This document shows, piece by piece, positions 1,162-27,477 of a stretch of DNA of 64,000 nucleotides (its first letter is position 1; each line of letters starts with the position of its first letter). The position numbers and the translations under genes are program-made. The notes below the pieces were generated by a model, which saw nothing but the letters and a program-made list of their open reading frames with translations, was not told where the DNA came from and did not search any database. The DNA is from Gemmatimonadales bacterium (GTDB lineage: Bacteria > Gemmatimonadota > Gemmatimonadetes > Gemmatimonadales > GWC2-71-9): positions 64,001 through 128,000 of the forward strand of contig JBFJCP010000004.1 of assembly GCA_041615815.1 (NCBI GenBank), in the 5' to 3' direction.

Positions 1162-2469
1162 TCAGCTCGCCTGGCGCACTTGTTTCTGGTCTTCGGCGCC
1201 GAACTGTTCTTCTTCGGTGGATCCCGTCATCGCCAGCGTGGATGACGTGCCACCGGTAATGACCTGGGTGATATCGTCGAAGTATTTGGCGCCAACGAAC
1301 TGCTGGTGCCGCACGGCCTCGTACCCCTGTCCCTCCGACGCGAACTCGCTTTCCTGCAGGTCCGCGTAGGCGGCCATGCCACGCTTGCGGTAGTCCATGG
1401 CTAGCGTGAACATCGCATAGTTCATGGAATGAAATGCGGATAGCGTGACGAACTGGAATTTGTAGCCCATCGCGCCGAGCATGCGCTGGAAGCCCGCGAT
1501 CTCGGTGTCGCTGAGATGCATCTTCCAATTGAAAGAGGGCGAGCAGTTGTACGCTAGCAGCTTGCCTGGGTATCGCGCGTGCATGGCATCGGCAAACTGG
1601 CGTGCCTCGTCGATGTTCGGCGTTGAGGTCTCGAACCACAAGAGATCGGCGTAGGGCGCATAGGCGAGTCCACGGGCAATGGCGGCCTCGATGCCGCTGC
1701 GGACGCGGAGAAACCCTTCCGCCGTGCGCTCGCCGGTGACGAACGGCGCATCATACGGATCGATGTCGTTTGCCAGGAGGCCTGCACTGAGGGCGTCGGT
1801 GCGAGCGATCAGGATCGTGTCGATGCCGCACACATCGGCGGCTAGCCGCGCAGCCACCAGCTTCTTGATGAACTCACGCGTGGGCACCAGGACTTTCCCG
1901 CCCAGGTGGCCGCATTTCTTCAGCGAGGCGAGCTGGTCCTCGAAGTGGACGCCGGCGGCTCCCTGTTGGATCATGTGCTTCATGAGCTCGAACGCGTTCA
2001 GAACCCCGCCGAATCCGGCCTCGGCATCCGCGACAATGGGCACCATCCAGTCAATACTGTTCTGGCCCGACATGTGATGGATCTGGTCGGCGCGGAGCAG
2101 GGCGTTGTTGAGCCGCCCCACGAGATTGGGGACACTGTCCGCGGGGTACAGACTCTGGTCCGGATAGACTTCGCCGGCATCGTTCATGTCACCGGCCACC
2201 TGCCAGCCGCTGAGATAGATCGCCTTGAGCCCAGCCTTCACCTGCTGCATCGCTTGCCCGCCGGTCATGGCACTGAGGGCTGGCACGTACGGATCCGCGT
2301 GCAGCAGGTCCCAGAGTCGGGCCGCGCCGCGGCGGGCCAGAGAATGCTCCACGTGGATGGTGCCAGCGAGGCGACGCACATCGTCTGCGCTGTAAGGACG
2401 CGTGATCCCGTTCCAGCGAGGGTCCTGACTCCAGCGGTGCTCGAGTTGGTTGAAGACAGCGTGATTCAT
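1162..2469 (-). CDS. aceA: isocitrate lyase
   Basis: Motifs [29 protein letters not shown] and [11 protein letters not shown]. Start taken at MNHAVF. Confidence 0.97.
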
Positions 2470-2483
2470 CGAAATCTCATTGG

Positions 2484-4130
2484 TTAGTCGATATGCTCGT
2501 ACGCGGCCACGGTGAGCCACTCGGTGAACTCGTCGTTGGTCATCATCCGCTCGAAGAGGCCTGCGGCGAGCTTCAGCTTCCCGCGGTCTCGCCCGTTCTC
2601 GCAGAGCGTCTGCATCACTTGCCCGATGATCTGCTTGATCAATGTGGGAGTGACGGTCTGTCCATCAGTGAGCTCGGCGCCGTGCTTCACCCACTGCCAC
2701 ACCTGCGACCGAGAGATCTCCGCGGTCGCGGCGTCCTCCATCAGGTGGTAAATCGGAACGCAACCGGTTCCGCTGAGCCAGGCGGCGAGATACTGAACCC
2801 CCACATCGATGTTGTGGCGGAGCCCTTCCTCGGTCACGGCCCCGCTCGGGACACGGAGGAGATCACCCGACGTGGCAAACACGTCTTTCCGTTTCCGGTC
2901 GAGTTGGTTGGGCGTGGGCATGTAGAGGTCGAACACTTCCTTGGCCACCGCAACGAGACCTGGATGCGCCACCCACGTCCCGTCATGTCCCGCGGTCACC
3001 TCGCGCAACTTGTCCTGCCGCACTTTCTCGATCCCACGCCGGTTGGCAACGGGATCGTTCTTGACGGGAATCTGTGCCGCCATCCCCCCCATCGCGTGGA
3101 TACCCCGGCGGTGGCAAGTCCGGATCAACAATTCGACGTACGCGTTGAGGAAGTGCCGGTCCATCGTGACCTGTCCACGGTCGGGGAGCATGAACTTGGA
3201 ACGAGCACGGAATTTCTTGATGAAGCTGAAGATGTAGTCCCACCGTCCACAGTTCAGGCCTGCCGAATGATCCCGCAGCTCCCAGAGGATCTCATCCATC
3301 TCGAACGCTGCCAAGATGTTCTCGATGAGCACGGTGGCTCGGATCGTTCCCCGCCGGAGACCGAGGTGATCTTGGGCGGCATTGAAGACGTCGTTCCACA
3401 GCCGGGCTTCGAGATGCGATTCGAGTTTGGGGAGGTAGAAGTACGGACCGCCTCCACGCTCGGTCAGCGCCACGGCGTTGTGGAAAAAGAAAAGGCCGAA
3501 GTCGAATAGCGACCCCGAAACCGGCGATCCGTCCACGAGGAGGTGCCGTTCATGGAGATGCCAGCCCCGGGGTCGCACGAACAAGGTGGCGAGTTGGTCC
3601 CCAAGCTGATAATGCTTGCCGCTCGGATTGGTGTAGGTGATGGTGCCGCGGACGGCGTCTCGGAGATTGCGCTGTCCATCCACGTTGTTGGCCCAGGTAG
3701 GACTGTTGGAGTCCTCGAAATCGGCCATGTAGACATTCGCCCCCGAGTTGAGGGCGTTGATGACCATCTTACGATCCACCGGGCCCGTGATCTCGACCCG
3801 GCGATCTTCCAGATCGTGGGGGATGGGCGCGACGGTCCACTCACTCTCCCGGATCTCTCTCGTTTCGTTCAGAAAATCCGGCATGACGCCGGCGTCCAAT
3901 TGCTCCTGGACCTCCGCCCGCCGTGCGAGGATTTGCTGGCGCCGGGACTCGAAGGTGCGATGAAGTTCAGCGATGAAGGCCAGAGCCCCTGGGGTAAGGA
4001 TGTCCGCCCACTCGTCGGCCACCGGAGCCGTAACCGTGACTCCCAGGGGCTTGATCTGCGCCGGGTCGAACCGGCCGATGCCGGGTGTCCGTGCCGAGTG
4101 CGTGTCCCTCACGCTGGGGTCAGCGCGCAT
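2484..4130 (-). CDS. aceB: malate synthase A
   Basis: Motifs [34 protein letters not shown] and [20 protein letters not shown] lies upstream of ATG 4130. Adjacent to aceA. Confidence 0.97.
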
Positions 4131-4204
4131 GACCATCTCCTGAATCGGGTTCGCTGCTCCCGCTCCCGCACCCAAAGGGGGGGTGGCTTTGCAGGTTCCC
4201 CAGG

Positions 4205-4219
4205 GCAAATGGCATGCCT
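4205..4219 (-). promoter_or_regulatory. putative sigma-54 (-24/-12) promoter of aceB-aceA
   Basis: The minus strand reads AGGCATGCCATTTGC (GG-N10-GC with GGCA and TTGC), about 75 nt upstream of the aceB start. Confidence 0.4.
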
Positions 4220-4492
4220 GCAACAGGGCCGTGAAAAAGGACCTGAGTAAGGGGGCAAGCGTTGCATGCTCGCAACGGTTTCAGAGCAAGAGCGGCACGG
4301 GGATTCGGGGGGAAAGGTGCGACAGGGGGAGCTGCAGATCGGCCGGGAGGGGCGGGAGGGGCTGGGGAAGCGGGATTGGCAATGAACGCAGAAGCGGTAG
4401 TGGCACGAGCGCATGCTCTGCCTCCTCAGCCTCTTTTGCCCATGCTGCCTCCTCTACCCCTCCTGTCCTCTCTGCTTCCGGTCCTTCTCGTC

Positions 4493-5213: not shown

Positions 5214-6092
5214 TCATGGGGCTCGGTGGTCGATGCCAGCTCGCTCGCAAGGAGGGCTCGTCTGAGCATTCGCGAGATAATCGGCCGTGTTCCGAGCACG
5301 GCGGGCCCAAAAGTCCGCCACTGGTCCCAGCCAGCCATTCAGACGGCGATGCGCTTCTGCCGCCTCCCGCGCATACTCGGCTAACCAACGGACGAGTCGT
5401 CCCGGATCCTGCGAGGCCATTGCGTGGAGTGCGTATCGACGCTCGCCCGCCCGCAGCCCCACGCCGAGGTCGCGCGCTGCGCGGCCGACGTCAGAGCGGG
5501 TCAGGATGAGACCGCTTCGTACCGGAGTCAGCATGGTCACCAGGACGTCAGGACGGGCACCCGCGGCGTCCCAGGCCGGGGGCGCACTTCGGAGGTGAAG
5601 CGGCAACGACCCGGAGTATGGCATGTCCCAGGCCTCCCGTTCGAGCACTTCTCGCACGAGCCCGCCCCAGGCAACGTAGGCTGGCGGGCCAGTCTGCTGG
5701 AGTTTGTCGAGGAAGATGGGAACCCAGCTCAGAAGGTGCTCCCACAGCAGGGCGGCGCGGGGCCGGCGGAAGACGGCTGCGCGCTCGGGCGGTGCCTTGC
5801 GCTCGAGGTCGGCGAGGTGGGCGTAGAGGCTCAGGAGGACGGCCAAGTGGTCGGGTTCCGCTGGCGGTGGCTCACCCAGGGCGCGCCAGAATCCGGCGAT
5901 GCGGTCTCGGGCCTCCCCTCCCAGCATGCCTTCGTCGCCGAGGTATACGGACGCGAACGGATAGAGCTCGAACAGAAACAGCCGCGTGTACTCCTCGCTC
6001 GAGGGAACGGGAAGCTCGAGAAGCGCGGCGAGCCGCGCGGTCTCGGGGTGTGGTGGTTCGGCGAGCGCGCCGAGGGCGCGAAGGAGCTCCAT
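5214..6092 (-). CDS. TorD/DmsD-family molybdoenzyme maturation chaperone
   Basis: Motifs YPFASVY, EPDHLAVLL and EHLLSWVP. The start MELLRAL overlaps the stop of the upstream molybdoenzyme gene (TAATG). Confidence 0.85.
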   Translation of the reverse strand: MELLRALGALAEPPHPETARLAALLELPVPSSEEYTRLFLFELYPFASVYLGDEGMLGGEARDRIAGFWRALGEPPPAEPDHLAVLLSLYAHLADLERKAPPERAAVFRRPRAALLWEHLLSWVPIFLDKLQQTGPPAYVAWGGLVREVLEREAWDMPYSGSLPLHLRSAPPAWDAAGARPDVLVTMLTPVRSGLILTRSDVGRAARDLGVGLRAGERRYALHAMASQDPGRLVRWLAEYAREAAEAHRRLNGWLGPVADFWARRARNTADYLANAQTSPPCERAGIDHRAP

Positions 6093-8998
6093 TATCTGGT
6101 GACGGGTTCGGGGAGCCGAAAATGCTCCTTGGGTGGTTTCAGGGGGCGCAGCAGCCAGAACGGTCGCCGGGTTCGGTCTGGCGAATAGCGGTGAGCCGGT
6201 CGTGTCTTTTGAAGCCACTGTTGGTACACGATCCGGGCTTTTTCGGTGTCGACGGAAATGTCGCCGTAGGCATCATCGGGCTCCGCGCGTCGCACCCGCA
6301 CTGCCTGATGCCAGCAGTGCTGGCCGGAAATCGGATCCGGATGCACGGGGAAGGTCATGTTTTGGTGCACGCCGGCGTCCGTCCACCAGATCCGGCCCGT
6401 GTCGGGATCGGTAGACGGATACGGTTCCACATTCGTCCTGCGTGCGAGATCCCACGTCGAGCCTCGTTGCTGCAAGGCAACCGTGGCCATGAGCTGACGC
6501 TGGCCGTTGTCGCCCACCTTCCAGCGGCCCATGTGGTGACTGCAGGCCACCACGCCCGGTCGGATCCCTTCCGTCACCCACGCTTTCACCACAAAGTAGC
6601 CGATCTCCGTTTCCACCCGGACCAGTTGTGCGGTGCGGACACCGACTCGCGCTGCGTCCACGGGATGAATCCACAGGGGATTCGTGTGGGCGATCTCATC
6701 GAGCCACTTCGCGTTCGCGCTTCGGGTATGGATGTGCACGGGGAGCCGAAAGGTGGAGATGAGCGGCATCTGCCCGTCTTCGAGCTTGTCGGGATGCACG
6801 TGGCTCGGGAGGTAGGTGGGGACCGTGCATTCCGTCCAGCCCCACCTCGCGAGCGTTCGCGAGTAGAACTCCAGGCGCCCACTAGGCGTGGGAAATCCCC
6901 GGAGGATCTTTCCGTCAATGCGCACGCCAACGGCGCGACGTCCCTCGGCGTCGGGGTCGGGGCTCGGTTGGGGAACGACATTGGGTGACGGGTCTTTGGG
7001 TGCCCTGGTGTATACGCGTCCCAAGTGGTCCTCACCGATGTCCTGCAGGTCGTCGGGAGGAACTTCCTGTGCGTAGATGGGCCCGATCGTCCGCTCGATC
7101 TCGAATGCGCCGTAGCGCCGCATGTACTGGAGCGGTGTGAGTCCTTCGGCTGAAGCCCGTTCGGGCAGTCCGGGAACCGAGTGTTCGAATGCGTAGGCGT
7201 AGTACTCATCCACGGTGAGCTTCTCGCCCGGTGCCTTCTTCGATTCCACATACTTCCGAATTCCCAGTTGGCCGTCCGGATCGATTCGCCATGTGAGGTC
7301 CATCCAGAACTCGTTTTCCTCCCACACTTCTCCGGGGTTCACCTCGCGGGTATCCCGCACCGGCTGATTCATTCGGACGCGTGCGGCCCGGAGTACGGGT
7401 TGGCGAAAGCCGATCCACTGGGCGTCATGCGTTTCGTACGAGTGGAGGTCGTGTCGTTCCGAGCTGTGGCCCATGGGTAGCACGTAATCGGCGAAATACG
7501 CCGTCTCGTTCCACGTGGGTGTGAGGGCGACATGGAGTCCAACGAGCTGTTCGTCTGTGAGGACCTCGATCCAGGAGAAGCCATCGGGGTTGGTCCACAC
7601 GGGGTTGTAGACCCGCGTGAAGTACACGTCGATCCGTCCCCGCCCATCCTTGAGGAAGTGCGGAAGCAGGAACGACAGCTCGTTCATGGCGAGTGGGTAT
7701 TCGAGGGGCCAGGTGAGCTCGTTCCATCGGGGTGGATGCGGCGGCGTGTAGATCGGCCTGGGCACGAACTTGTTCCAGGCATTGGGATAGGTACCGCCCG
7801 GGACGGCGACGGCACCCATTAGAGCATTGAGGAAAAAGAGTGAGCGCGAGACTTGCCAGCCGCCTTCATTACCGGCGGCGGCGCTCCGCCAGTTGTGCGT
7901 GGAGAGCCGGGTCCCGGCGGTCGAGACCACCCGGGCAATCTCCGCGATCGTCTCCGCATCCACGCCGGATTCCCGTGCGGCGAAGTCGAAGGTGTACGAG
8001 CGGTAGCGGTCTTTGAGCGCGCGCTCGAAGTTTTCAAACGTTGGTACGAGATCGGATCGTTCAGCCTCCAGATATTCCTGCCAGTTGAACCACCGGCGCA
8101 CGAACTCCCGATTGTAGAGATTGTGTTGAATGAGGTAATTGGCGACCGCTAAGAGGATCGCGGCCTCCGATCCCGGATACGAGGAGACCCAGTGGTCGGC
8201 GTGGGTCGCCGTGTTGGATAGACGCGTATCGAAGACGATGAGTTTGGCCCCGTTCTGCTTGGCGTCGATCACGCGCTGGGCATGCGGGTTGAAGTAATGA
8301 CCGGTCTCCAGATGGGCTGAGACCAGCAGGATGACCCGCGCGTTGGCGTGATCCGGACTCGGTCGGTCGTAACCCATCCAATACTGATAGCCGGCGCGGC
8401 CGCCCGACGAGCAGACGTTGGTGTGCGAGTTGTGACCGTCCACGCCCCAGGCGGCGAGGATCCTTTCAGTGAAGCCGTCCTCTCCCGGCCTTCCCACGTG
8501 ATACATGACTTCGTTGTGACGGTTTTCGGCGATGGCCCTCCCAATGCGGCGCGCGATGTCGCTCAGCGCCTCCTCCCAGCTCACCTGGACCCACGAGCCT
8601 TCCCCCCGAGCACCCGCCCGTTTGAGCGGATAGAGAATGCGATCGGGATCGGTGACCTGATTGATCGTCGCCGGTCCCTTGGCGCAGTTCCGTCCTCTGG
8701 AGCCTGGGTGCTCCGGGTTCCCCTCGAACTTGCGAACCTGGTGCGTTGCTTGGTCGACGTATGCCAGCAGCCCGCAGGCGGATTCACAGTTGAAGCAGGT
8801 GGTGGGCACGAGCATGTACCGATGTTCCCGCCGCTCCGGCCAGGCACGCGAGTCGAGTTCGACCCAGTGGTCCCATCGCTCTTTGGGTGGGTACGCCGCG
8901 AGGTGGATGCGGCTCGGACCGGGGTAGAACGTCTCGCCGCGGGCTTCCGTGGCCGCTCGGGCAGCGCTGAGGCGTCGGTTCAGTTCGTCGAGCGTCAT
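6092..8998 (-). CDS. DMSO-reductase-family (Mo-bisPGD) oxidoreductase catalytic subunit, Psr/Phs/Soe/Arr-like, with no Tat signal
   Basis: N-terminal FS0 motif CFNCESAC...NCAKG, DPDRILYPLKR, putative Mo-ligand segment SHTNVCSS, ETAYFADYVLP, and a C-terminal MopB_CT-like region (LWIHPVDA...TEGIRPGVV). Confidence 0.9.
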   Translation of the reverse strand: MTLDELNRRLSAARAATEARGETFYPGPSRIHLAAYPPKERWDHWVELDSRAWPERREHRYMLVPTTCFNCESACGLLAYVDQATHQVRKFEGNPEHPGSRGRNCAKGPATINQVTDPDRILYPLKRAGARGEGSWVQVSWEEALSDIARRIGRAIAENRHNEVMYHVGRPGEDGFTERILAAWGVDGHNSHTNVCSSGGRAGYQYWMGYDRPSPDHANARVILLVSAHLETGHYFNPHAQRVIDAKQNGAKLIVFDTRLSNTATHADHWVSSYPGSEAAILLAVANYLIQHNLYNREFVRRWFNWQEYLEAERSDLVPTFENFERALKDRYRSYTFDFAARESGVDAETIAEIARVVSTAGTRLSTHNWRSAAAGNEGGWQVSRSLFFLNALMGAVAVPGGTYPNAWNKFVPRPIYTPPHPPRWNELTWPLEYPLAMNELSFLLPHFLKDGRGRIDVYFTRVYNPVWTNPDGFSWIEVLTDEQLVGLHVALTPTWNETAYFADYVLPMGHSSERHDLHSYETHDAQWIGFRQPVLRAARVRMNQPVRDTREVNPGEVWEENEFWMDLTWRIDPDGQLGIRKYVESKKAPGEKLTVDEYYAYAFEHSVPGLPERASAEGLTPLQYMRRYGAFEIERTIGPIYAQEVPPDDLQDIGEDHLGRVYTRAPKDPSPNVVPQPSPDPDAEGRRAVGVRIDGKILRGFPTPSGRLEFYSRTLARWGWTECTVPTYLPSHVHPDKLEDGQMPLISTFRLPVHIHTRSANAKWLDEIAHTNPLWIHPVDAARVGVRTAQLVRVETEIGYFVVKAWVTEGIRPGVVACSHHMGRWKVGDNGQRQLMATVALQQRGSTWDLARRTNVEPYPSTDPDTGRIWWTDAGVHQNMTFPVHPDPISGQHCWHQAVRVRRAEPDDAYGDISVDTEKARIVYQQWLQKTRPAHRYSPDRTRRPFWLLRPLKPPKEHFRLPEPVTR

Positions 8999-9008
8999 CG
9001 TCTATTCC

Positions 9009-10571
9009 TCAGGCCAGCGGCACGGACTGTCCAGCCTGCACGTAGGCGTGTTCGTGGGCCAGGAGGCCGGCGAGTGCCAGCGGAACCGCGGCGACGCCGA
9101 TCCAGGGAGCCGCGGCCCCGCCGAGGACGAGCACCGCCCCGACCCAGAAGAACATGCGGTAGCGACCATTGGTCATTTCCCAGCTCGCCAGCCGTGCGTG
9201 TGCCGTGGGGTGGGTGAGGCTGGCTTCCCCGGCCACCATGAGCAGGTGCACGACACTGCTGCCGGACAGGAGCCAGGTCACGGCGTTCACCGCGGTTGGC
9301 TCGAACTGCGCCGCCAAGGGAAGAAGCGTGGCGGATCCGGCGAGGACGGCTTGGACGAGGAGGTGTGGTGGAAGGAGCGGGTTTTGCCACAGGTCCCGGG
9401 CTTTGGCCTGTGCGAACAGGTAGGCCGTGTAGACCGCCGTGAGCGCTCCCAATGGGAATCCGGCGATGATGAGCCACGTCTGCCATTCACTCTCGCCGGC
9501 GAGCGTGGCCAGGAAGTGGAGTGCAAGGACTAGCGAGTACCCACCGATGATGTAGGCGCCCTTGACCAACCAGCTCGACCGTTGTGAGTGGGTGAAGATG
9601 AGATGGAAGCGCTCGGGGTGTTCCAGGTCCCAGAGAAGCAACGCGCCCGTGGCGGCCAGAAAGATGCCGCCCAGCACTGGTGCCGCCCACTGCCACAGGG
9701 GACTCGCGCTTCCAATCACCCCCAGCGCCAAGAGGAGCGCAGGAATCAGATAGGCCCCGGCGGCGATGCCTTTGGTCCAGGTGTAGAGGCTGACGCGCCA
9801 ATCCCACGGTGCTTGGTGCGGCACGTCGTAGGATAGGATGGCGGCGGCGGAGCTGTTGGCCGGTCCCGGATGCCCCGACACCACGTTGTTGCTGCCGTGC
9901 CCTCGTTCGCTCCACATGAAGAGGCCGCCCTCGGGCCGCGTTGCCGCGATCGGATCGAGGGTGGCTTGGTGGGCGCCTTTATAGAACAGTTTGGGCCGTG
10001 TCTCTTTTTCCGGTCGCCTGACGGTCACGACATCCCGTTTGACGTAGTGCGACACGGGAGAGCCCGGGTCGTTCAGGTCGCCCACCAGGATCGCTTCGGT
10101 GGGGCAGACGACGACGCAGGCCGGCTCCAGTCCCATGTCAAGCCGATGTGCGCAGAAGTTGCACTTTTCGGCTGCGTGGTCGGCTGGATTGATGAAGATG
10201 GCGTCGTAGGGACATGCCGCAATGCACGCCTTGCAGCCGATGCAGATGGCCTTGTGGAAGTCGACGATGCCGTCGGGCCGCCGATACATGGCGGCGGTGG
10301 GGCAGGCGATGACGCATGGAGGGTCATCGCATTGGTTACAGCGGGTCACCTGAAAAGCCCGCCGCACGTTGGGATACGTCCCGATGTCGACGTACTTCAC
10401 GTAGGTCCGATTGACGGAGAGTGGGACTTCGTTCTCCGACTTGCAGGCGGTGCTACAGGCGTGACAGCCGATGCAGCGGCTGTGATCGATGACCTTCGCC
10501 CATTGGGGGGGGAGGGTTTCGAGTCGCGGTGGTGCCGCCCAGTTCGTCGGCGCCTGCGGTGCAGCCGTCAT
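9009..10571 (-). CDS. fused 4x[4Fe-4S] ferredoxin (PsrB/NrfC-like) and NrfD/PsrC-like membrane anchor
   Basis: Four Cys clusters (CIGCHACSTAC, CNQCDDPPCVIACP, CIGCKACIAACP, CNFC...ACVVVCP), then a multi-TM domain with NrfD-type DLEHPERF and SSWLVKG. GGAGAG RBS before MTAAPQ. Confidence 0.9.
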   Translation of the reverse strand: MTAAPQAPTNWAAPPRLETLPPQWAKVIDHSRCIGCHACSTACKSENEVPLSVNRTYVKYVDIGTYPNVRRAFQVTRCNQCDDPPCVIACPTAAMYRRPDGIVDFHKAICIGCKACIAACPYDAIFINPADHAAEKCNFCAHRLDMGLEPACVVVCPTEAILVGDLNDPGSPVSHYVKRDVVTVRRPEKETRPKLFYKGAHQATLDPIAATRPEGGLFMWSERGHGSNNVVSGHPGPANSSAAAILSYDVPHQAPWDWRVSLYTWTKGIAAGAYLIPALLLALGVIGSASPLWQWAAPVLGGIFLAATGALLLWDLEHPERFHLIFTHSQRSSWLVKGAYIIGGYSLVLALHFLATLAGESEWQTWLIIAGFPLGALTAVYTAYLFAQAKARDLWQNPLLPPHLLVQAVLAGSATLLPLAAQFEPTAVNAVTWLLSGSSVVHLLMVAGEASLTHPTAHARLASWEMTNGRYRMFFWVGAVLVLGGAAAPWIGVAAVPLALAGLLAHEHAYVQAGQSVPLA

Positions 10572-10649
10572 CGGCGGTTCTCTCCACAGCAAGTCTGATC
10601 CGAGCGGCAGCGCGCAAGCTCGCTCGCTGGCGCGCGCTCGACCACCGCT

Positions 10650-10678
10650 GAACTATGCCTTCAGCGAGGTCGCGTCAA
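10650..10678 (-). promoter_or_regulatory. putative sigma-70 promoter for the Fe-S/NrfD, molybdoenzyme, chaperone operon
   Basis: The minus strand reads TTGACG-N17-TAGTTC, about 80 nt upstream of ATG 10571. Confidence 0.4.
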
Positions 10679-10803
10679 GACCGAGGAAGCCTGATCCCAA
10701 CGGCATGCAAGCGTTCCGGAATCGAATGATCAACCCATCGATGAAGCGAATCAGTTGTGAGTGACGTTTTTCTCGAGGGGAATGGTGCGGCGATCGTCGT
10801 CTT

Positions 10804-11106
10804 CTACGGAAGGTCGCAGCTTCGAATGCATCCCAGGATCGCGGTGACCTTGGGTTCGGTGATCCAGTAATAGACGTTCGCGCCTACGCGACGCGAGTCG
10901 ACGATGCCTCGCCCTTTGAGGGTGCTCAACTGCTGCGAGACGGCGGCTTGCGTGGCCCCGCAGAGATTCTGCAGTTGGGACACGGTCAGCTCGCCATGCT
11001 CGAGTGCATCCAGAATGCGCAGGCGGAGTGGGTGACCGAGGCACTTGATGACAGAGGCTGCCCGGTCGAGCACGTCGGGATCGAGCGAATCGAACGAAGT
11101 GGTCAT
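10804..11106 (-). CDS. ArsR/SmtB-family transcriptional repressor (Cys-containing, possible persulfide sensor)
   Basis: wHTH motifs LGHPLRLRIL, VSQQLSTLK and RRVGANVYY. Four Cys residues, including C-terminal CIRSC. Confidence 0.9.
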   Translation of the reverse strand: MTTSFDSLDPDVLDRAASVIKCLGHPLRLRILDALEHGELTVSQLQNLCGATQAAVSQQLSTLKGRGIVDSRRVGANVYYWITEPKVTAILGCIRSCDLP

Positions 11107-11178
11107 GGTTCCTAGCCTACGTCACGGCTGCGCGGAGTCTGTCTTTCGCGGCCTGTTGGTCTCCGTCCACGGGCAGCC

Positions 11179-11805
11179 TCAGGTCTGCTGTTTGACCTTG
11201 GGTGTCTTCTCCACCGGGTAGCCGCGCTCGAGCCAATCGACCATGCCGCCGAACACGAGCCGCGCGTCCTTGCCCGCTCGCTGCATGATGGACGCCACGA
11301 ACGAGCTTCGAACCTGATCGCCGCACACCAGCGCCAACGGCTTCTGATCGTCCACGCCTTCGAATTTGTCCCACGGCTCGGTCCATTCGAGCACTTCCGA
11401 GCCCGGAATGTGGCCGTACCGGAATTCGAAGCCCTCGCGCGTGTCGATGACGCGGAAGGTATCGAGTCCGTCTTTGAGTTCGTCCACGTTCATGAGGGGC
11501 AGTGTGGCGGTTGGGAAGCCGGTGGCCTTCCAGCCCTTGAGCCCGCCCTCCAGATACCCCGCCACCGTGAAACCGGCCTTGGTCAGAAGATCGACGGCCA
11601 CCTTCGCAATGGGCTCGGGCTCGGCGTGGACGATGTAGGTAGCGCTCGTGGGAAGTGACAACTCGGCCCGATCCGCCAGGTCGGCGCGATTGAACTGGAA
11701 GTTCACCGCTCCGGGCACGTGCTCCGTCGCAAATGGCTTGGGCGGGCGCATGTCGAGAATCACGGCGCCTGCCGCTGCTGCGGCCCGGACGGCTTGCGGT
11801 ATCAT
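11179..11805 (-). CDS. tandem rhodanese-domain sulfurtransferase (Cys-less domain plus active domain)
   Basis: Two rhodanese repeats (LDMR..F..EHVPGA..LEGGLKGW and IDTR..F.YGHIPGS..VFGGMVDW). Only the second has an active-site-loop Cys (VCGDQVRS). Confidence 0.9.
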   Translation of the reverse strand: MIPQAVRAAAAAGAVILDMRPPKPFATEHVPGAVNFQFNRADLADRAELSLPTSATYIVHAEPEPIAKVAVDLLTKAGFTVAGYLEGGLKGWKATGFPTATLPLMNVDELKDGLDTFRVIDTREGFEFRYGHIPGSEVLEWTEPWDKFEGVDDQKPLALVCGDQVRSSFVASIMQRAGKDARLVFGGMVDWLERGYPVEKTPKVKQQT

Positions 11806-12602
11806 ACGCCGGCTCCCTTCAGCTCTTCTCTCGAGATCAGGCCGAGGTTGTACGACTTGATGCGCTCAAAGTTTTCGGGAAACGGTTTGGCGGTTTCATG
11901 CACGAACTTGCCAAATGCCTTGGCGTTGGGCTGCCGCATGGCGAGGTTGAACTGCTTTTCAAAGGCGATCGTCGACACCGCCTTGCCGCTCATGTTGACG
12001 CCGCCACACGTCGAACCGCCGTAATGCCCCGGGTACACCTCGACGTAATCAGGGAGGGTGAATAACTTCTCGGTCACGCTGCGGTAGAGCGTCTCGGCTC
12101 GGGCCGTCTCGTCCATGACGTCCACCGCCTGGTCTCCCAGGAGTAGGTCCGGCCGTCCCACATCACCGACGAACAGCGCGTCGCCCGTGAGCACGAACCA
12201 CGGATCGCTGGAGCGCGCGGTATCGGTTACGAGGAACGAGGTGTGCTCCGGCGTGTGGCCTGGCGTGTGGATCGCTTCGAGCCGGATCCCGCCGATCTCG
12301 ATGGTCTCACCGTCTTTGATTGGCGTGAAATCGTACGTCACAAGGCCCTGAGCGGACTCGTGCAGGTAGTGTGGCACCCCGTTCATCTCTGCGAGCTCAC
12401 GGGCGCAGGACACGTAATCGGCATGCACATGCGTTTCGTACACGCCCACGATGCTCAGGCCGAGATCGGCAGCCTCCAATACGTAGAAGTCAGTCCCGAG
12501 GTCTTCGATGGGATCGACGATGACGGCCTCTTTGGCCCGCGGGCATCCTAACAGATACGACGCCTGCGCGAGCGGCTCGTGCCGGAATTGTTTCATGATC
12601 AC
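11802..12602 (-). CDS. MBL-fold persulfide dioxygenase (type III/CstB-like PDO domain)
   Basis: Motifs ETHVHADY, HTPGHTPEH, TGDALFVGDVGRPDL and YPGHYGGSTCG. Confidence 0.8.
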   Translation of the reverse strand: MIMKQFRHEPLAQASYLLGCPRAKEAVIVDPIEDLGTDFYVLEAADLGLSIVGVYETHVHADYVSCARELAEMNGVPHYLHESAQGLVTYDFTPIKDGETIEIGGIRLEAIHTPGHTPEHTSFLVTDTARSSDPWFVLTGDALFVGDVGRPDLLLGDQAVDVMDETARAETLYRSVTEKLFTLPDYVEVYPGHYGGSTCGGVNMSGKAVSTIAFEKQFNLAMRQPNAKAFGKFVHETAKPFPENFERIKSYNLGLISREELKGAGV

Positions 12603-12605
12603 GGC

Positions 12606-12857
12606 TCAGTCCTCCTCTTCGACTTTCCGCATGTAGAACACAAGCACACCGTCGCCTTCCTCATGCCACTCGAGAAGCTCATTTCCCGTGTCCTCCGCCC
12701 ACGCCGGGAAGTCCGCGATGGACCCGCGGTCTGTGGCGAGGATTTTGAGAATGTCCCCGTCGTCGAGGGAGCGCATTTCTTTGGCGGCCTTCACCACCGG
12801 CATGGGGCAGAGGAGCCCGCGGGCATCGAGGATCTTGGTTTCTTGTACGTCGGGCAT
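12606..12857 (-). CDS. tusA: TusA-family sulfur carrier
   Basis: Motifs LDARGLLCPMP (CPxP) and ATDRGSIADFPAWA. Confidence 0.92.
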   Translation of the reverse strand: MPDVQETKILDARGLLCPMPVVKAAKEMRSLDDGDILKILATDRGSIADFPAWAEDTGNELLEWHEEGDGVLVFYMRKVEEED

Positions 12858-12944
12858 CTCATCTCTCCGCTAATGACCTGTCATACGTGTACCATCACGC
12901 CCGTCCGGCTGATCCCGAGTCATGGGGGACGGTCGGAGCGGGCC

Positions 12945-13505
12945 TCACACGAATACCGTCACGTGTGACTTGCGAGCCTCCGAAAGGAATGCGGCAGCGC
13001 CCGCGAACTCCACACCATCGATGAAATCGTCTTCTTCGTATTCAAAGACGTCCATCGTCATCTGGCAGGCAATGAGCCGCACATCCAATTCCCGGGCGGC
13101 ATCCAGGAGCTCGCGAATCGTGGCCACCTTCTTTTTCTTGAACTTCGCCTTCATCATCCCGGTGGCCATGCGGGTCATCCCGGGCATCGCGGTCAGTATG
13201 TCCGGCATGGGTACAGGCATGGGCATGCCCGGATTCCCCACGGGTGACACTTTGAGGAGGTTCTCGAAATCCTTGTGGATGACGTTCAGGCCGTAAAACG
13301 TGAAGAACACCGCTGCGTCCATCCCCGCGGCGGCGGCTGCCGTTGCGAGAATCAGGGGTGGATACGCCCAGTCCAGCGTGCCCTTGGATGCGATGATGCG
13401 GGCGTTCTTGCGCGCGGGATCTCGCTTGAATGCCCGCTGGATCTCCTCGCGGACGATGGTGCGAACGGCTTCCTCGGTGAGTCCGGTCTGATTGGTCTCC
13501 AACAT
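12945..13505 (-). CDS. DsrE2-like (DsrE/DsrF/DrsH-like) sulfur relay protein
   Basis: Motifs IIASKGTLDWAYPPLILA, VFFTFYGL, LIACQMTMDVF and GAAAFL. Start taken at MLETNQ. Confidence 0.88.
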   Translation of the reverse strand: MLETNQTGLTEEAVRTIVREEIQRAFKRDPARKNARIIASKGTLDWAYPPLILATAAAAAGMDAAVFFTFYGLNVIHKDFENLLKVSPVGNPGMPMPVPMPDILTAMPGMTRMATGMMKAKFKKKKVATIRELLDAARELDVRLIACQMTMDVFEYEEDDFIDGVEFAGAAAFLSEARKSHVTVFV

Positions 13506-13580
13506 CGTGGCCTCGCGGGTGGTGTGGGCTGGCCAGGGAGTGGGTACGGAGAATCTGGCGTCCCGCTCGATTGGTGCACC

Positions 13581-13628
13581 ATAATATACGAGAAATGTAA
13601 TATTATAGTATATCATTATTATTGTCAA
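13581..13628 (-). promoter_or_regulatory. AT-rich divergent promoter/operator between the dsrE2 operon and sulP
   Basis: The minus strand reads TTGACA-N15-TATAAT (or N17-TAATAT). The inverted repeat ATAATAT-N12-ATATTAT at 13581-13606 overlaps the -10. The segment is strikingly AT-rich in a GC-rich window. Confidence 0.75.
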
Positions 13629-13648
13629 CCGACCTGTCAGGCGAGGGC

Positions 13649-15226
13649 ATGACTCCAGTGCATGCAGACGGCGCGCGCCGGATTCGAGTGGCCGACGTGG
13701 TGGCCGGTGGGAGCGTGGCCCTCGTGCTCGCCCCGCAGTCGCTGGCATTTGCCGAGCTGGCTGGTCTGCCGGCCTACCACGGGCTGTATGCGGCGGCCAT
13801 ACCCCCGATCGTGGCTGCCGTCTTTGCCTCCTCCCCCTATTTGCAGACCGGTCCCACGGCCATGACGAGCCTGCTCACCTTCGGCGCCCTGAGCTCACTC
13901 GCCGCAGTCGGCACTCCGAGCTATGTGGCGCTGGCGGCGTTGCTCGCGCTGGTCGTGGGGTTGCTGCGAGTCGGGTTGGGCATGGTGCGGTTGGGGTGGG
14001 TGGCCTACCTGATGTCGCGTCCCATAATCACGGGTTTCACCACGGGTGCGGCCATTCTGATCCTGGCGTCCCAGCTGCCCACGGCACTCGGGGTCGCGGC
14101 GCCGGAGGGGCGCCTTCTGGTTCGTGCATGGTGGGCGCTCACGCACGTGCGCGAGTGGGAGATCGGGGCCCTCGTCCTTGCCGTGGCCACCGTCACGATC
14201 GTGCTGGGCGGTCGCAAGCTCCACGCGTTGTTCCCCGGGGTGCTCGTCGCGCTGGCGTTGGCCTTGGTGGCGAGTGTGCTCATGGGTTACCAGGGATCGG
14301 TCGTGGGATCGGTGCCCAGCGGTCTTCCCCCGGTGTCCCTGGCGCTCCCATGGACCGAGCTGCCCCGTTTGCTCGTGCCGGGTGCCGTGATCGCCCTGGT
14401 CGGGTTTGCCGAGCCCGCGGCGATCGCTCGTACCTACGCGACGCAGGACCGGCAGCCCTGGAGTCCGGATCGGGAGTTCGTGAGCCAGGGTGCCGCCAAT
14501 TTCGCCGCGGGGCTCTCGGGTGGGTTCCCCGTGGGCGGATCGTTCTCCCGCACGTCCCTCAATCGTCTTGCCGGAGGGCGGACGCGGTGGAGCGGTGCTG
14601 TCACGGGTGTCGCGGTCCTCGCGTTTCTACTCGTTGCTGGCATCCTCGCGCCACTCCCAAGGGCCGTTCTCGGGGCGATCGTGATTTCGGCGGTCGTCAC
14701 GCTGATCCAGTTCAAGCCGCTTGTCCGACTCTACCAATACTCGCGCCCGCAGGCGCTGGTAGCGTGGACCACGTTTGTCGCTACGCTCGCCCTGGCCCCC
14801 CGGATCGAGCGAGCGGTGCTGGTGGGGATCGGACTGGCGATCTTCATTCACTTGTGGCGGGAGCTTCGCCTTCATGTTTCCACCCGATACCAGGGGACCA
14901 CCCTGCGCCTCGCGCCGAAGGGCGTCCTCTTCTTTGCCTCGGCGCCGAACCTGGATGAAGCCTTTCTGCGCGAGCTGGCAGCGCATCCGGAGACGGAGCG
15001 CGTCGTCGTGGATCTCTCGGGTCTCGGTCGGATCGACTACACGGGAGCGCTCGCGCTGAAGGACGTCACCGATGACGCCCGGGGGGCCGGCCTCAAGGTC
15101 GAGTTGACCGGCGTTCCGCCGCAGGCACGCCGCGTCCTCGTCCGCGTCATCGGCGCAGACTGGCCGCTGCTCCGCTCACACAAATGGGACGTTCGCGCTG
15201 ACCCGGTCGTGCCTCCCACCCCATAG
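13649..15226 (+). CDS. SulP/SLC26-family anion (sulfate) permease with C-terminal STAS domain
   Basis: Motifs PQSLAFAELAGLP, GLYAA, GPTA, GSFSRT and LFFASA...VVVDLSGLGRIDYTG. Confidence 0.93.
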   Translation: MTPVHADGARRIRVADVVAGGSVALVLAPQSLAFAELAGLPAYHGLYAAAIPPIVAAVFASSPYLQTGPTAMTSLLTFGALSSLAAVGTPSYVALAALLALVVGLLRVGLGMVRLGWVAYLMSRPIITGFTTGAAILILASQLPTALGVAAPEGRLLVRAWWALTHVREWEIGALVLAVATVTIVLGGRKLHALFPGVLVALALALVASVLMGYQGSVVGSVPSGLPPVSLALPWTELPRLLVPGAVIALVGFAEPAAIARTYATQDRQPWSPDREFVSQGAANFAAGLSGGFPVGGSFSRTSLNRLAGGRTRWSGAVTGVAVLAFLLVAGILAPLPRAVLGAIVISAVVTLIQFKPLVRLYQYSRPQALVAWTTFVATLALAPRIERAVLVGIGLAIFIHLWRELRLHVSTRYQGTTLRLAPKGVLFFASAPNLDEAFLRELAAHPETERVVVDLSGLGRIDYTGALALKDVTDDARGAGLKVELTGVPPQARRVLVRVIGADWPLLRSHKWDVRADPVVPPTP

Positions 15227-16039: not shown

Positions 16040-16077
16040 CGGGCCTCCGTCCCGACGCGGGACGGAGGCCCGTGTTT
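16040..16077 (+). terminator. strong hairpin, probable terminator after the porin gene
   Basis: CGGGCCTCCGTCCCG-ACG-CGGGACGGAGGCCCG followed by TGTTT. Confidence 0.6.
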
Positions 16078-16123
16078 GTACGCGGCATGTTGCCCTCGTG
16101 CCTGCGGCCGTCCAAAATTCGGC

Positions 16124-18346
16124 ATGAAACGACGCGAAGGGCTCCGGAAGCTCATGGGTCAGGAGCGGTACATCGACGACCTGCTGGTCGAGGGCTGCCT
16201 CTGGGGTATGACGGTTCGGAGCCCTGCGCCGCGTGGCCGTATCCGCGCGGTGCGGTTTGGGAGGGACATCGATTGGTCGCAGATCGTCGTCGTGGATCAC
16301 ACCGATCTCCCTGGTCCCAATGAGACTCTCCTCATCGAGCCGGACCAACCGGTGCTGGCTGCGCACTATGTCCGTCACGTGCACGAGCCGGTGCTGGTGG
16401 TGGCCCATCCTTCGCGAGACATGGCACGGCGCGCGGCCCGCGCCATCGAGATCGATGTCGATCCGGACCCACCGGCCTTGGATTTTCGGGTCCCGCCCAG
16501 TCCCGACCAGATTCAATACGGCCGTGACAACGTCCTGAAACATCTGACGATCACCAAAGGGGACGTGGAGCGTGCCTTGGCCGCCGCGCCACACGTCATC
16601 GAAGGCACCTACGAAACCGGCGCTCAAGAGCACGTCTACCTCGAGAACCAGGGCATGATTGCCTACGTCGAGGACGGCGTGCTCGTCGTGCGGGGCTCCA
16701 TGCAGTGCCCATACTACGTGCTCAAGGCGTTGACCCACGCACTTGCGCGTGACGAGGCTCGGGTACGGATCGTTCAGGCGCCGACCGGTGGAGGGTTTGG
16801 TGGCAAAGAAGAGTACCCGTCCACGGTCGCGCTCCACGCGGCGTTGCTGACCCTCAAAGCCGAGCGGCCGGTCAAGCTCATCTACGATCGGGCCGAGGAC
16901 ATGGCTGCCACGACGAAGCGTCACCCGGCGTGGGTGCGCCATCGCACGGGTGTCGACGACGGTGGCCGACTACTCGCCCAGGACATCGAGGTCCGGATCA
17001 ACGGTGGGGCGTACGTGACCCTATCGCCGGTCGTGTTGAGCCGCGCAGTGATCCATGCGGCTGGCCCGTATGCGTGCGACCACGTGCGGATCGACGGGAA
17101 GGCGATCCTGACGAATGCGGTGCCCTTTGGCGCGTTTCGTGGATTCGGCGCCCCGCAGACCCAGTTTGCCAACGAGCGCCACATGGACGTCGTGGCCCGC
17201 GCCCTTGGTATCGATCCTGTCGAACTCCGACGAATCAACCTCATTCGTGATGGGCAGAGCACCTCGACGGGTCAGGTCATCCACGACGGGACGGACCGCG
17301 TGGCGGTGATGGAGCAGGCGCTGGACGCGGCTCGGTATCACGAAAAGCGCCGGGAACACATCGCGTTCAACGCCTCGCACCCGACACACCGTCGTGGCAT
17401 CGGGTTCGCGACCTTTTACCACGGGGCAGGCTTCACGGGGAGCGGCGAGGTGATGTTACGATCACGTCTCCATGTGGCGGGACGGGCCGATGGCACGATC
17501 GAGATCTTGAGCGCCAATATCGAAATGGGCCAGGGGACGATCACCGTGTTCACGCAGATCGCGGCGGATCGGTTAGGATACGCGCCCGCGGATATCGTCA
17601 TCGCCGAAGCGGATACGGCCCGCGTCCCCAACTCGGGGCCAACCGTCGCCTCTCGAACGTCGATGATCGTGGGCCGGTTACTGGAGCGCGCCTGCGATGA
17701 CTTGCGAGCCCAACTGGGGCTGCCCAACGCGAGCCGAGGGGCGGCCGTCAAGGACGCTATCCTGAGGTGGCATCGTGCCAACCCCGGGGAGGCGCTCGTG
17801 GGTCGCGCGACGTATGAGAAGCCCCGTGACGTCCAGTGGGACGACGCGACGTATCGCGGTGATGCCTATGGGACCTTTGCGTGGGCGACGTACGTGGCGG
17901 AGGTGGAGGTCGATCTCCGAACCTATGTGGTGCGCGTCATCGACTTTGTGGCGGTACAAGAGATTGGAAGGGTGATCAACGAGACGCTTGCTCGGGGGCA
18001 GGTGCAGGGTGGGGTGGTGCAGGGCATCGGTTGGGCATTGATGGAAGAATGCCAGTGGCAGGACGGCGCCATGGCCAACAATCAACTCACGAATTACATC
18101 ATTCCCACGAGCGATGATGTTCCCGCCATCCAGGTCGAGTTTCTCGAGACCCCATATCCTTACGGAGCCAAGGGGGCCAAAGGGCTGGGTGAGCTACCCA
18201 TCGATGGGCCGGCTCCCGCCGTGGTGAACGCCATCGAGGCCGCCACCGGTGCGGACGCTCGCGTGATTCCGGTAACCCCGGAGCGTCTCATGCTGCTGAT
18301 GGAGCGGTCGCTGGCCGGCGGACCCCGGGGCGCTGGGAGGACGTGA
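16124..18346 (+). CDS. xanthine dehydrogenase family molybdopterin-binding subunit (PucD/XdhA-like)
   Basis: Motifs [42 protein letters not shown] and AKGLGELP. The start codon is uncertain. Confidence 0.92.
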
Positions 18347-18816
18347 ACGTGTCGGAGACCATCAACATCACCTTCACCCTGAACGGTGCCAACCTGGCGC
18401 TGGACGTGAGCCCGGCGGAACGGCTCTTGGACGTGCTCCGTTATCGGCTCGATCTGACGGGTACCAAGGAGGGGTGCGCGGAAGGTGAGTGCGGCGCGTG
18501 CACGGTGTACCTGGACGGGGTCCCCGTGAACGCCTGTTTGGTTCCTGCGTATCAAGTACGGGGAAGTCGGGTGGAGACCATCGAGTCGTTGGACGGTGCA
18601 GCTCTCGACCCCCTGCTCGAGAGCGGCGCCACGCAATGCGGCGCTTGCACCCCCGGAGTCGTGATGACCGCGTGGTGGATACGTCAGAACACGGATCTGT
18701 TGGAGACCCATAGCATCCGCGAGCTGATGGCCGGCAATCTCTGCCGGTGCACCGGCTACGACGGGATCGTCGATGGGATCGAGGCGATGATCCGAAGAGC
18801 TCGGAGCGAGCGGTGA
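18343..18816 (+). CDS. xanthine dehydrogenase family 2x[2Fe-2S] subunit
   Basis: Motifs [24 protein letters not shown] and NLCRCTGY. Confidence 0.93.
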
Positions 18817-19643
18817 GCGTTCGCCTTCCGCGCACGCTGGACGAGGGTCTCGCGATGCTGGCGGATACGCCAGGCGCTGTCCCGATGGCGGGAGGCACCG
18901 ATCTGCTGGTTCACTGGCCCCAGCGTCTCGACCACCACGGCGTGACCTACGTCGACCTGTGGAAGGTGGATGAGCTCCGGCCGCTCCGGTGGACCGACGA
19001 CGCACTGATGCTCGGCGCGCTGACCACCTACTGGGACGTGATGCGCGATGCCCGCGCCCGGGAGCTGTTCCCGCTCTTGATGCATGCGGCGAGGCAAGTC
19101 GGTGCCGTCCAGATCCAGGCGCGGGGCACGTGGGCTGGCAACATCGTGAACGCCTCCCCTGCCGCGGACGGCGTGCCCGTCCTCATGGCGTACGATGCCG
19201 TCGTTGTCCTGCGCTCTCTCGATGGCGAAGTTGAGGTGCCACTCGCCGACTTCTATCTCGGCTACAAGAAGATGCGACGTCGTCCAGACCAGCTGGTCAC
19301 CGCGATCCGCATTCCCCGACGCCGATACGAGTACGAGATGTTCGAGAAGGTGGGCTCGCGGCGTGCCCAAGCCATCACCAAGATCGGTGTTGCTGTGACG
19401 AGGGCCGACGGTGCATGGCGAGTCGTCGCGAACAGTATGGCGCCCACGGTCCGGCGATGTTTGGCTCTCGAGGATCTGCTCTCGCGCCGGGTCCCCATTG
19501 CGTCGCCGTCCGATCTCGTGCCGGCGATCCGCGCGGACGTGTCTCCCATCGACGACATTCGGTCCACGGCCGCGTATCGGGAGCGGGTCATGGCGCGGGT
19601 ACTGTATTATGAGCTCGCCGCGATCTGTGACTGGTGGCGATAA
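18813..19643 (+). CDS. xanthine dehydrogenase family FAD-binding subunit
   Basis: Motifs [29 protein letters not shown] and [12 protein letters not shown]. The GTG start overlaps the upstream stop. Confidence 0.92.
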
Positions 19644-24900: not shown

Positions 24901-25425
24901 TTACTGCACGACGAGCCGGGCACGGAATCGGCTGGCGAGGCTCACCCGTCGCATCTCGTCGTCCGTCATCGATATCCATACGAGGTCGGCTCCGTTCACC
25001 GTGCCCTCCACCATTCTGCGGTCCACGCGCGTCACCACGAACGACAGGGTGGATTCAGCGTCATGATGCACGCCGATGTCGTTCGGTAGGCTGAGTTGCA
25101 TCACGGCACCCAATTGTTGGTCATCAACGTTGCTCAGATCCACAGGCCGGCCCACGAGATCGTCCACGCCCTGCGCGGCGGATCGCCACTGCACACTCCC
25201 GCTCGGCACGGCGGTCACGATGTTGACTGCCGCGGGATCCTGCCCGAGTGCAAAGAACACCCGTCCGTCTGGCAACGCCATCGAGACCAGATCGATCTGA
25301 CCAAATCGAAACTCTTCACCATTCACGGTTCCCCGCCAATAGGTATCGTTCCCACGACCACAGCCGATGGCCAAGACCGCGAGGACACCGGCGGCGATCG
25401 CCGCACGGGACGCTGGGTCAGTCAA
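24901..25425 (-). CDS. hypothetical lipoprotein
   Basis: Hydrophobic signal with lipobox LAIG-C. The TTG start overlaps the puuD stop. No family recognised. Confidence 0.6.
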   Translation of the reverse strand: MTDPASRAAIAAGVLAVLAIGCGRGNDTYWRGTVNGEEFRFGQIDLVSMALPDGRVFFALGQDPAAVNIVTAVPSGSVQWRSAAQGVDDLVGRPVDLSNVDDQQLGAVMQLSLPNDIGVHHDAESTLSFVVTRVDRRMVEGTVNGADLVWISMTDDEMRRVSLASRFRARLVVQ

Positions 25426-26608: not shown

Positions 26609-26642
26609 GTGATCCCTACACCGAGACGAGCCACATGGGGAT

Positions 26643-27472: not shown

Positions 27473-27477
27473 GTGGC

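Follow-up and report, generated by a model that had tools for sequence, protein, structure and literature searches.

A cst-type sulfur cassette joined to a Tat-less molybdoenzyme in a Gemmatimonadales bacterium: a candidate sulfide- and persulfide-clearing regulon

Operons with the gene order psrBCA or with a PsrBC fusion, and without a twin-arginine translocation (Tat) signal on subunit A, have been described in Marinimicrobia, MGII archaea, green sulfur bacteria (PSRLC3), Caldilinea, Chloroflexus and Haladaptatus (PMC3906813, citing Frigaard & Bryant 2008 and Gregersen 2011). Here we analyse a nine-gene locus of similar layout in the genome of a Gemmatimonadales bacterium (G000). The locus lies in a stretch of 64,000 nucleotides termed the window (positions 64,001-128,000 of contig JBFJCP010000004.1), and all feature coordinates are window positions (Table 1). 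It joins a cst-type sulfur cassette to a molybdenum (Mo) enzyme predicted to face the cytoplasm. Together with an sqr operon elsewhere in the genome, we lean towards reading it as a two-operon sulfide/persulfide-clearing regulon of a heterotroph, which would end in quinone-reducing sulfite oxidation and sulfate export.

The locus shares with psrBCA/PSRLC3 the B-C-A order, the fused Fe-S/anchor gene and the Tat-less catalytic subunit; the likeness is one of layout, and a link by sequence runs via Chloroflexota and haloarchaeal homologues only. In contrast to those operons, the genes are accompanied by a cst-type cassette, TorD, ArsR and SulP, and the genome has no dsrA match. The Staphylococcus aureus cst system, which also includes CstA, TauE and CstR, resembles the locus in its CstB-type persulfide dioxygenase (PDO) with Gln13 and a Cys-Gly loop, a rhodanese cysteine accompanied by two arginines, an SQR in the genome, and TusA, DsrE and rhodanese carriers. 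Unlike in S. aureus, CstB is split into two overlapping genes, the carriers are separate, sqr belongs to another operon, the regulator is of the ArsR type, the transporter is a SulP protein and a molybdoenzyme is attached.

Among molybdoenzymes, SoeABC of Allochromatium vinosum and Aquifex aeolicus (PMC8076601, PMC10100899) is likewise a cysteine-ligated Mo-bisPGD enzyme with an inverted NrfD-like anchor and a predicted cytoplasmic orientation, and its reaction is the one proposed below; yet in the present complex the catalytic subunit forms a separate branch, B and C are fused and the gene order is different. PsrABC/PhsABC and ArrAB (2vpw, 6cz7) provide the nearest solved folds and sequences and share the cysteine ligand and the PsrB-like Fe-S domain, but structural identity is 22-23%, the family scores fall far below cut-offs, and these enzymes are Tat-exported, outward-facing reductases. 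The MOLY/YTD clusters of sulfur disproportionators (PMC12998232, PMC9676032) also combine a Mo subunit, an Fe-S protein and a TorD-like chaperone with TusA and DsrE-type genes. As described there, however, MolyAB is exported and anchorless and the full cluster is confined to Desulfobacterota, whereas here the anchor is fused and both Tat motif and YedE are missing; on this description (PMC12998232) the enzyme is set apart from MOLY.

A split CstB and a separate sqr operon

The best solved matches of the PDO are 3r2u (E 2e-47), which we take to be S. aureus CstB, and 3tp9 (E 5e-46), with ETHE1 at 3e-18; the tandem rhodanese aligns to the remainder of 3tp9. The two open reading frames (ORFs) overlap by 4 bp in this genome. 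They are also two ORFs in L042, L043, G010, G015 and G019, and are fused into a single ORF of 473-476 amino acids in L029 and L031. The PDO harbours Gln13, an HVHADY metal motif and a Cys199-Gly200 loop, while the first rhodanese domain lacks an active cysteine and the second contains Cys161, Arg123 and Arg166. These residues equate to Q13, C201-G202, C408, R370 and R413 of CstB, the equivalence in the rhodanese half being judged by spacing. In CstB they are tied to thiosulfate as the sole product, without free sulfite, and canonical PDOs release sulfite (PMC12934615). Judged by these matches, the PDO and the tandem rhodanese are a split CstB; since the thiosulfate-linked residues are kept, the cassette should, by analogy with S. 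aureus CstB, give thiosulfate rather than free sulfite. The carriers encoded upstream retain their cysteines as well: DsrE2 Cys147 is a cysteine in 17 of 18 aligned rows, and the TusA cysteine is likewise kept.

The initial annotation had regarded these genes as a self-contained relay of the kind that feeds Dsr or sHdr systems. A relay serving rDsr or sHdr oxidisers is not supported: the genome (95.7% complete) yields no dsrA match (no control genome scored above the cut-off either) and, instead of an sHdr-type CCG pair, a single CCG-domain protein, and the PDO and rhodanese are of the cst type. Neither soxB above the cut-off nor soxY was found in this genome, and an aprA search gave no match, the model giving none in any control either. 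The annotation was right that dsr, sox, shdr and sqr genes are absent from the window, as far as the window genes scanned are concerned (a few short ORFs lay outside the scan).

The locus is not self-contained, given a type III SQR encoded on contig C2 (G000:C2:114212-115450), outside the window. The protein reaches 592.7 bits against NF049943 (cut-off 525), and its reading frame has no internal stop, although the model describes a selenoprotein subtype. The gene belongs to an operon sqr-tusE-dsrE-rhodanese (G000:C2:114209-117357, corresponding to L138:8210-11358), in which tusE scores above its cut-off and the rhodanese, 308 amino acids with an N-terminal hydrophobic stretch, may be exported or membrane-bound. 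Of the 9 other sqr loci examined, 8 retain the order sqr-tusE-dsrE, which is conserved across Gemmatimonadota and one Actinomycetota genome. In a comparison of 41 related genomes, which G016 entered only as a negative, type III SQR exceeded the cut-off in all five cassette-bearing genomes vs 4 of the 36 others. Overall it occurs in 7 of the 8 cassette genomes tested (two more with it, G133 without), kin not being independent.

The molybdoenzyme, its orientation and its neighbours

The catalytic subunit carries an N-terminal [4Fe-4S] motif and the metal ligand Cys196, with Arg170, His192 and Arg201 near the site. Cys196 aligns with the corresponding cysteine of PsrA, ArrA and PhsA; Arg170 aligns with an arginine of ArrA, ArxA-like and SoeA-like proteins, where PsrA has a histidine. 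A structure model of the subunit (pLDDT 88) resembles ArrA (Z 29.9, rmsd 2.8, 707 aligned) and PsrA (Z 29.8, rmsd 2.9, 685 aligned) to the same degree. Sequence and model thus argue for a member of the Mo/W-bisPGD (DMSO reductase) superfamily, within the cysteine-ligand sulfur/arsenic/selenium clade.

Membership in the SoeA, PhsA, ArrA/ArxA, TtrA and MOLY groups was rejected. The score for PhsA, the best NCBIfam match, is 200 bits (cut-off 694) and the Tat motif is missing, which speaks against PhsA/PsrA; the ArrA and TtrA models give 112 bits (cut-off 1600) and 102 bits (cut-off 1750), and ArrA/ArxA and TtrA proteins branch separately. In a FastTree phylogeny of 35 of the 64 collected rows (duplicates, fragments and extra outgroups dropped), the family forms one clade (support 100) with some Tat-bearing members inside; the PhsA, ArxA-like, Ttr-like and SoeA-like rows lie outside it, the SoeA-like and Ttr-like ones on long branches. 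Placement in the bSreA/SoeA lineage is rejected on 24% identity and a separate branch, as measured against the sole SoeA reference, the long-branched L148, presumably a SoeA by its motif. Within a MopB family, identities are about 40% or higher (PMC10100899). P0122, P0125 and P0153 lack the ligand cysteine in the alignment.

The fusion protein contains 16 Fe-S cysteines and seven called helices, an eighth being likely. Across 72 sequences, its loops on the Fe-S side average 3.1/4.1/1.8/3.1 lysines plus arginines vs 0.3/0.6/0.2 in the other loops, and the Mo subunit has no Tat motif; owing to this positive-inside pattern and the missing signal, the catalytic and Fe-S side should face the cytoplasm. 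The prediction of an inverted anchor and a cytoplasm-facing complex agrees with the initial annotation, and for SoeC, too, a cytoplasm-facing catalytic side has been proposed (PMC8076601). A switch of membrane side within the family is suggested by P0126, P0153 and P0191, which bear Tat motifs although they fall in an otherwise Tat-less clade.

Genes for the Mo enzyme turn up in 635 or more stretches of the species collection and in 52 of the 121 class genomes, annotated as no more than a generic dehydrogenase. Among the matches listed, the closest named homologues come from Gemmatimonadales (83%); further ones are found in Chloroflexota (74-76%) and haloarchaea (51-54%), and identity to a Sulfurovum homologue is 38%. 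The family is also found on plasmids of Thermomicrobium, Rhodococcus and haloarchaea, and cultured carriers comprise Rhodococcus jostii RHA1 (pRHL3), Thermomicrobium roseum and Natrinema.

A link of this enzyme to sulfur, which the annotation had put forward, was borne out by a co-occurrence check set beforehand. Sulfur-handling neighbours were detected at 45 of 80 Mo-enzyme loci and at 30 of the 41 loci with 3.5 kb on both sides; the same scan hit 21 of 3730 7-kb segments of G000. The neighbours were PDO/CstB (24), SulP (15), rhodanese (12), DsrE (6), TusA (6), YeeE (4) and TauE (2), in counts for which some queries were drawn from these same loci, the Binatia include about seven nearly identical loci, and the PDO/CstB matches of L072 and L076 had no length check. 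In the Binatia loci a PDO of the BpPRF/ETHE1 type (best match 5ve3, E 2e-64) lies directly upstream, and SulP follows the Mo gene. The partners are interchangeable, yet all make or export sulfur oxyanions: CstB-type PDO, BpPRF/ETHE1-type PDO, SulP, TauE and YeeE.

Nine genomes from two phyla, the present one among them, have the dsrE2-tusA-CstB cassette next to the Mo enzyme, and at least five different gene orders are seen, so the clustering of enzyme and relay recognised in the annotation is conserved. A split-CstB orthologue is present in 5 of the 41 related genomes, always beside the Mo operon (in G010, the Mo gene lies in two frames in the assembly), and the cassette DsrE2 occurs in 3 of the 121 class genomes, each time next to the Mo enzyme. 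Conversely, 49 of the 52 enzyme carriers lack this DsrE2, and the earlier suggestion that the relay is wired to an enzyme of "its own" is not supported. The Mo enzyme is what all these loci share, with the cassette as an optional addition, and this pattern suggests that the substrate is diffusible.

Some loci deviate in other ways. In several Acidobacteriota, unrelated small genes stand between the fusion and the Mo gene or before torD, and some have an ABC transporter with SBP_bac_11 upstream (loci of these kinds: L022, L023, L045, L048-L050, L055, L057, L071, L072, L076). L060, L069 and L074, titled Klebsiella or Enterobacteriaceae, resemble Binatia/delta-type loci and are possibly mislabelled assemblies. 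A Tat-bearing relative with 32% identity on an Azoarcus KH32C plasmid (L100, 7848-10487) has the order B-C-A-TorD beside an arsA/ACR3 and sensor-kinase set, and is not ArxA-like in the tree.

Control region, regulator and genomic setting

All nine genes were verified where the initial annotation had placed them, including the divergent sulP and the shared AT-rich control region (Table 1). The core of the latter (22% GC) is the most AT-rich 50-bp stretch of the window, the next reaching 40%. It contains a TTGACA-17-TAATAT site facing dsrE2; the promoter scan returned 3 promoter-like sites vs 1.6 +/- 1.3 expected.

The solved proteins closest to the ArsR regulator are 6o8k and 3pqj, which we take to be SqrR and BigR, and the recognition helix is nearly identical to theirs. 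Unlike in these proteins, the sensing cysteine of helix 2 is replaced by Asp, which rules out a canonical SqrR/BigR sensor with a helix-2 and helix-5 cysteine pair; the score against NF040642 is 54 bits (cut-off 155). A C-terminal C93-x3-C97 pair is present instead and kept in all seven ArsR orthologues (C22 in five of seven). The CxxxC motif may mark a sulfur-sensing ArsR type. In L051, L056, L069 and L074, a different ArsR group, also with a C-terminal CxxxC, stands beside yeeE-yeeE-PDO-BC-A-sulP clusters.

In G005, an orthologue of the regulator is located inside the sqr operon. Palindromic matrices were trained on six spacers of the present locus type or on seven sqr regions, and each was ranked on the other set genome-wide. 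With the spacer-trained matrix, the genome-wide rank of the site upstream of sqr is 5 at a width of 20 bp, 3 at 22 bp and 22 at 21 bp. An operator common to both operons is plausible, and on motif evidence of moderate weight the SqrR-like ArsR probably represses both until persulfide accumulates.

Table 1. Features of the locus, in window coordinates
Feature	Position	Strand	Basis
TorD/DmsD-like maturation chaperone, 292 aa	5214..6092	-	PF02613 E 1e-12
Mo/W-bisPGD catalytic subunit, 968 aa	6092..8998	-	PF00384/PF04879/PF01568 above cut-off
Fusion of a four-[4Fe-4S] PsrB/NrfC-like domain and an NrfD/PsrC-type anchor	9009..10571	-	best solved match 2vpw_B, E 1e-52
ArsR-family repressor, nearest SqrR/BigR	10804..11106	-	profile/structure matches
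Tandem rhodanese, C-terminal half of CstB	11179..11805	-	matches to solved CstB-type proteins
PDO domain, CstB type, metallo-beta-lactamase fold	11802..12602	-	3r2u, 3tp9 matches
TusA-family sulfur carrier, CPMP motif	12606..12857	-	PF01206 E 5e-23
DsrE2-like sulfur carrier, Cys147	12945..13505	-	DrsE_2 E 4e-50
AT-rich divergent control core: sigma-70-like promoter for the dsrE2 operon and AATATT-centred imperfect palindrome (candidate ArsR operator)	13579..13629	.	GC and motif scans
SulP/SLC26 anion permease with STAS domain	13649..15226	+	PF00916 E 5e-79, PF01740

The TorD-like gene, matched by tblastn in 50 of 95 loci, is read from an ATG that overlaps the stop codon of the Mo subunit; the longest ORF would begin at 6218. 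Two family scores fall short of their cut-offs, just so for the DsrE2-like protein (NF047629, 207.7 bits vs 210) and more clearly for SulP (TIGR00815, 261 bits vs 380). The block has 64% GC like its flanks and sits at the same place, beside malate synthase, in L042 and G002; it is therefore not a recent insertion, as the earlier designation "island" would have it. DNA contigs from four runs cover the region piecewise, no single one spanning the block, and no RNA runs containing it are listed, which has no bearing on expression.

The block interrupts a purine-degradation/glyoxylate region (1162-4223, 16076-19643, 25418-28470 and 39775-41457) with genes for isocitrate lyase, malate synthase, xanthine-dehydrogenase-like proteins, a urate oxidase N-terminal domain, HIU hydrolase, OHCU decarboxylase, allantoicase and aceK. 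A YpdA-family putative bacillithiol disulfide reductase (1-920; TIGR04018 above cut-off) hints at which low-molecular-weight thiol could carry persulfide.

A proposed route from sulfide to sulfate and its rivals

In the regulon that we favour, the SQR encoded on contig C2 would, as expected from its family, convert sulfide to sulfane sulfur (step 1), which TusE, two DsrE proteins and TusA, with their conserved cysteines, would ferry as cysteine persulfides (step 2). Using O2, the split CstB would oxidise the persulfide and release thiosulfate, as inferred from the S. aureus protein (step 3). In what is the weakest step, rhodanese/TusA chemistry might split thiosulfate into sulfite and a persulfide that returns to step 3, and sulfite from other sources could enter here (step 4). 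The Tat-less Mo enzyme on its predicted inverted Fe-S/NrfD anchor would then oxidise cytoplasmic sulfite to sulfate and reduce quinone, a task that SoeABC carries out elsewhere and that would here fall to another enzyme family (step 5), and SulP might export sulfate and perhaps thiosulfate (step 6). With redox potentials of about -0.52 V for sulfate/sulfite and about -0.07 V for menaquinone, the oxidation direction is favoured. Moreover, green sulfur bacterial enzymes of the psrBCA layout have been proposed to oxidise sulfite (PMC3906813, PMC6338057).

A number of observations weigh against this scheme. As CstB is described to make thiosulfate alone (PMC12934615), the cassette does not directly feed a sulfite enzyme, and Hyphomicrobium HdTusA and HdDsrE3C did not mobilise thiosulfate sulfur in vitro (PMC11094781). 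The Mo subunit is remote from the SoeA-like protein, has PhsA as its best NCBIfam match, and the sister group of its family (support 99) consists mostly of Tat-bearing PhsA-like proteins. The genome also encodes a sulfite-oxidase-fold protein (L194, G000:C2:234298-234795), below the SorA/SoxC/SorT cut-offs. Regarding distribution, the SQR model, which other SQR types could escape, finds nothing in the cassette-bearing G133, and nine Mo-enzyme genomes (G002, G003, G040, G043, G045, G050, G053, G054, G133) lack an SQR match at E 1e-30. Of the well-flanked loci, 11 of 41 have no detected sulfur neighbour, as is true for 5 of 9 further class carriers that we chose (the rest comprise three with SulP and one with another DsrE/TusA/PDO set), and kin and near-identical loci inflate all counts. 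Finally, the operator rank depends on matrix width: the sqr-trained matrices place the site of the present locus at 73, 1 and 11, and shuffled matrices rank from 5 to beyond 400, sometimes reaching 5 to 10.

The kinship with reductases raises the alternative that the Mo enzyme is a cytoplasmic thiosulfate, polysulfide or persulfide reductase, serving persulfide control at low oxygen or as a respiratory electron sink when the O2-dependent CstB is idle. Its best family match PhsA, its best solved matches PsrA and ArrA and its PhsA-like sister group all fit this role, the adjoining CstB should make thiosulfate, and cytoplasmic Psr-like genes of Sulfurovum, which may or may not belong to the family, are induced under sulfur reduction (PMC10045233). 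We nevertheless consider this reading rather unlikely. Psr-type reduction is endergonic and needs the membrane potential (PMC8076601); if the active site and the quinone site share the cytoplasmic side, the reaction would move no charge across the membrane that could drive it. PDOs, which use O2, and anion permeases are the partners met most often, and returning the CstB product to sulfide within one regulon would amount to a futile cycle in air. Less likely still is a union of two modules under one promoter, in which the cassette stops at thiosulfate, exported by SulP, while the Mo enzyme clears sulfite derived from cysteine, sulfonates or chemical side reactions. The many enzyme carriers without this DsrE2, often with only SulP or nothing adjoining, are in line with such a division, as is the fact that CstB finishes without a partner (PMC12934615). 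However, the cassette was never found apart from the Mo enzyme (5 of 5 related genomes, 3 of 3 class genomes) through all its gene orders in both phyla, and unrelated DsrE, TusA and PDO types have been separately recruited to the enzyme.

The usual role of such relay proteins is to hand sulfur on to a terminal oxidase (PMC11094781), the genome contains no detected dsrA, soxB/soxY or sHdr-type pair, and on pRHL3 of R. jostii dsrE and tusA lie directly upstream of the fusion gene; the Mo enzyme might hence itself oxidise thiosulfate or TusA/DsrE-bound sulfane sulfur in place of Sox or sHdr. Yet DsrE and TusA adjoin only 6 of the 41 well-flanked loci each, and the active-site segments of family members are alike with and without carrier neighbours. 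We know of no such reaction in this superfamily and regard the idea as quite improbable. To a substrate outside sulfur chemistry, such as an arsenic or selenium oxyanion, we attach hardly any credence. It is true that fold and site residues tie with ArrA, that the Azoarcus relative lies beside arsenic genes with an arsenite-type sensor set, and that the operon carries an ArsR; but no arsenic-resistance family appears among the 32 recurring neighbour clusters scanned (singletons lying outside the scan), the ArsR is nearest to SqrR/BigR, the tree separates the family from the ArxA-like row and the ArrA model score is a small fraction of its cut-off.

Each part of the locus is known in kind, and the layout of the enzyme is already in print (PMC3906813); the initial annotation, which knew of no such characterised system, holds insofar as no description of an assay of the Mo-enzyme family, or of this gene combination, was found in the literature searched (largely open-access, supplements outside). 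What the locus adds is a split CstB with a thiosulfate signature, a second, sqr operon, a regulator resembling SqrR but with displaced cysteines, and evidence that sets the enzyme apart from SoeA. It is one arrangement among many, and its main use is as a pointer to the substrate of the Mo enzyme.

Going beyond the favoured regulon, we hold as a tentative proposal that the family is an independently evolved second family of cytoplasmic sulfite:quinone oxidoreductases, which arose from exported Psr-like reductases through loss of the Tat signal and fusion of an inverted anchor, and which would take sulfide or thiosulfate of heterotrophs to sulfate without Dsr, sHdr, Sox or Apr. If so, its carriers would include Gemmatimonadota, Acidobacteriota, Actinomycetota, Chloroflexota, Binatia and haloarchaea. 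The Mo enzyme would pull the thiosulfate loop of CstB and rhodanese to completion and recover some of the electrons, with control by a persulfide sensor whose cysteines are arranged in a new way. Oxidation of sulfide through SQR and PDO is a widespread trait of heterotrophs, and in one sediment study 38.6% of genomes carried genes for zerovalent-sulfur oxidation and 12.1% a recognised sulfite-oxidation route (PMC12345210). A sulfite-oxidising Mo-enzyme family would be a sulfite sink that marker-gene surveys overlook; it would fill part of this gap and settle the old PSRLC3 proposal.

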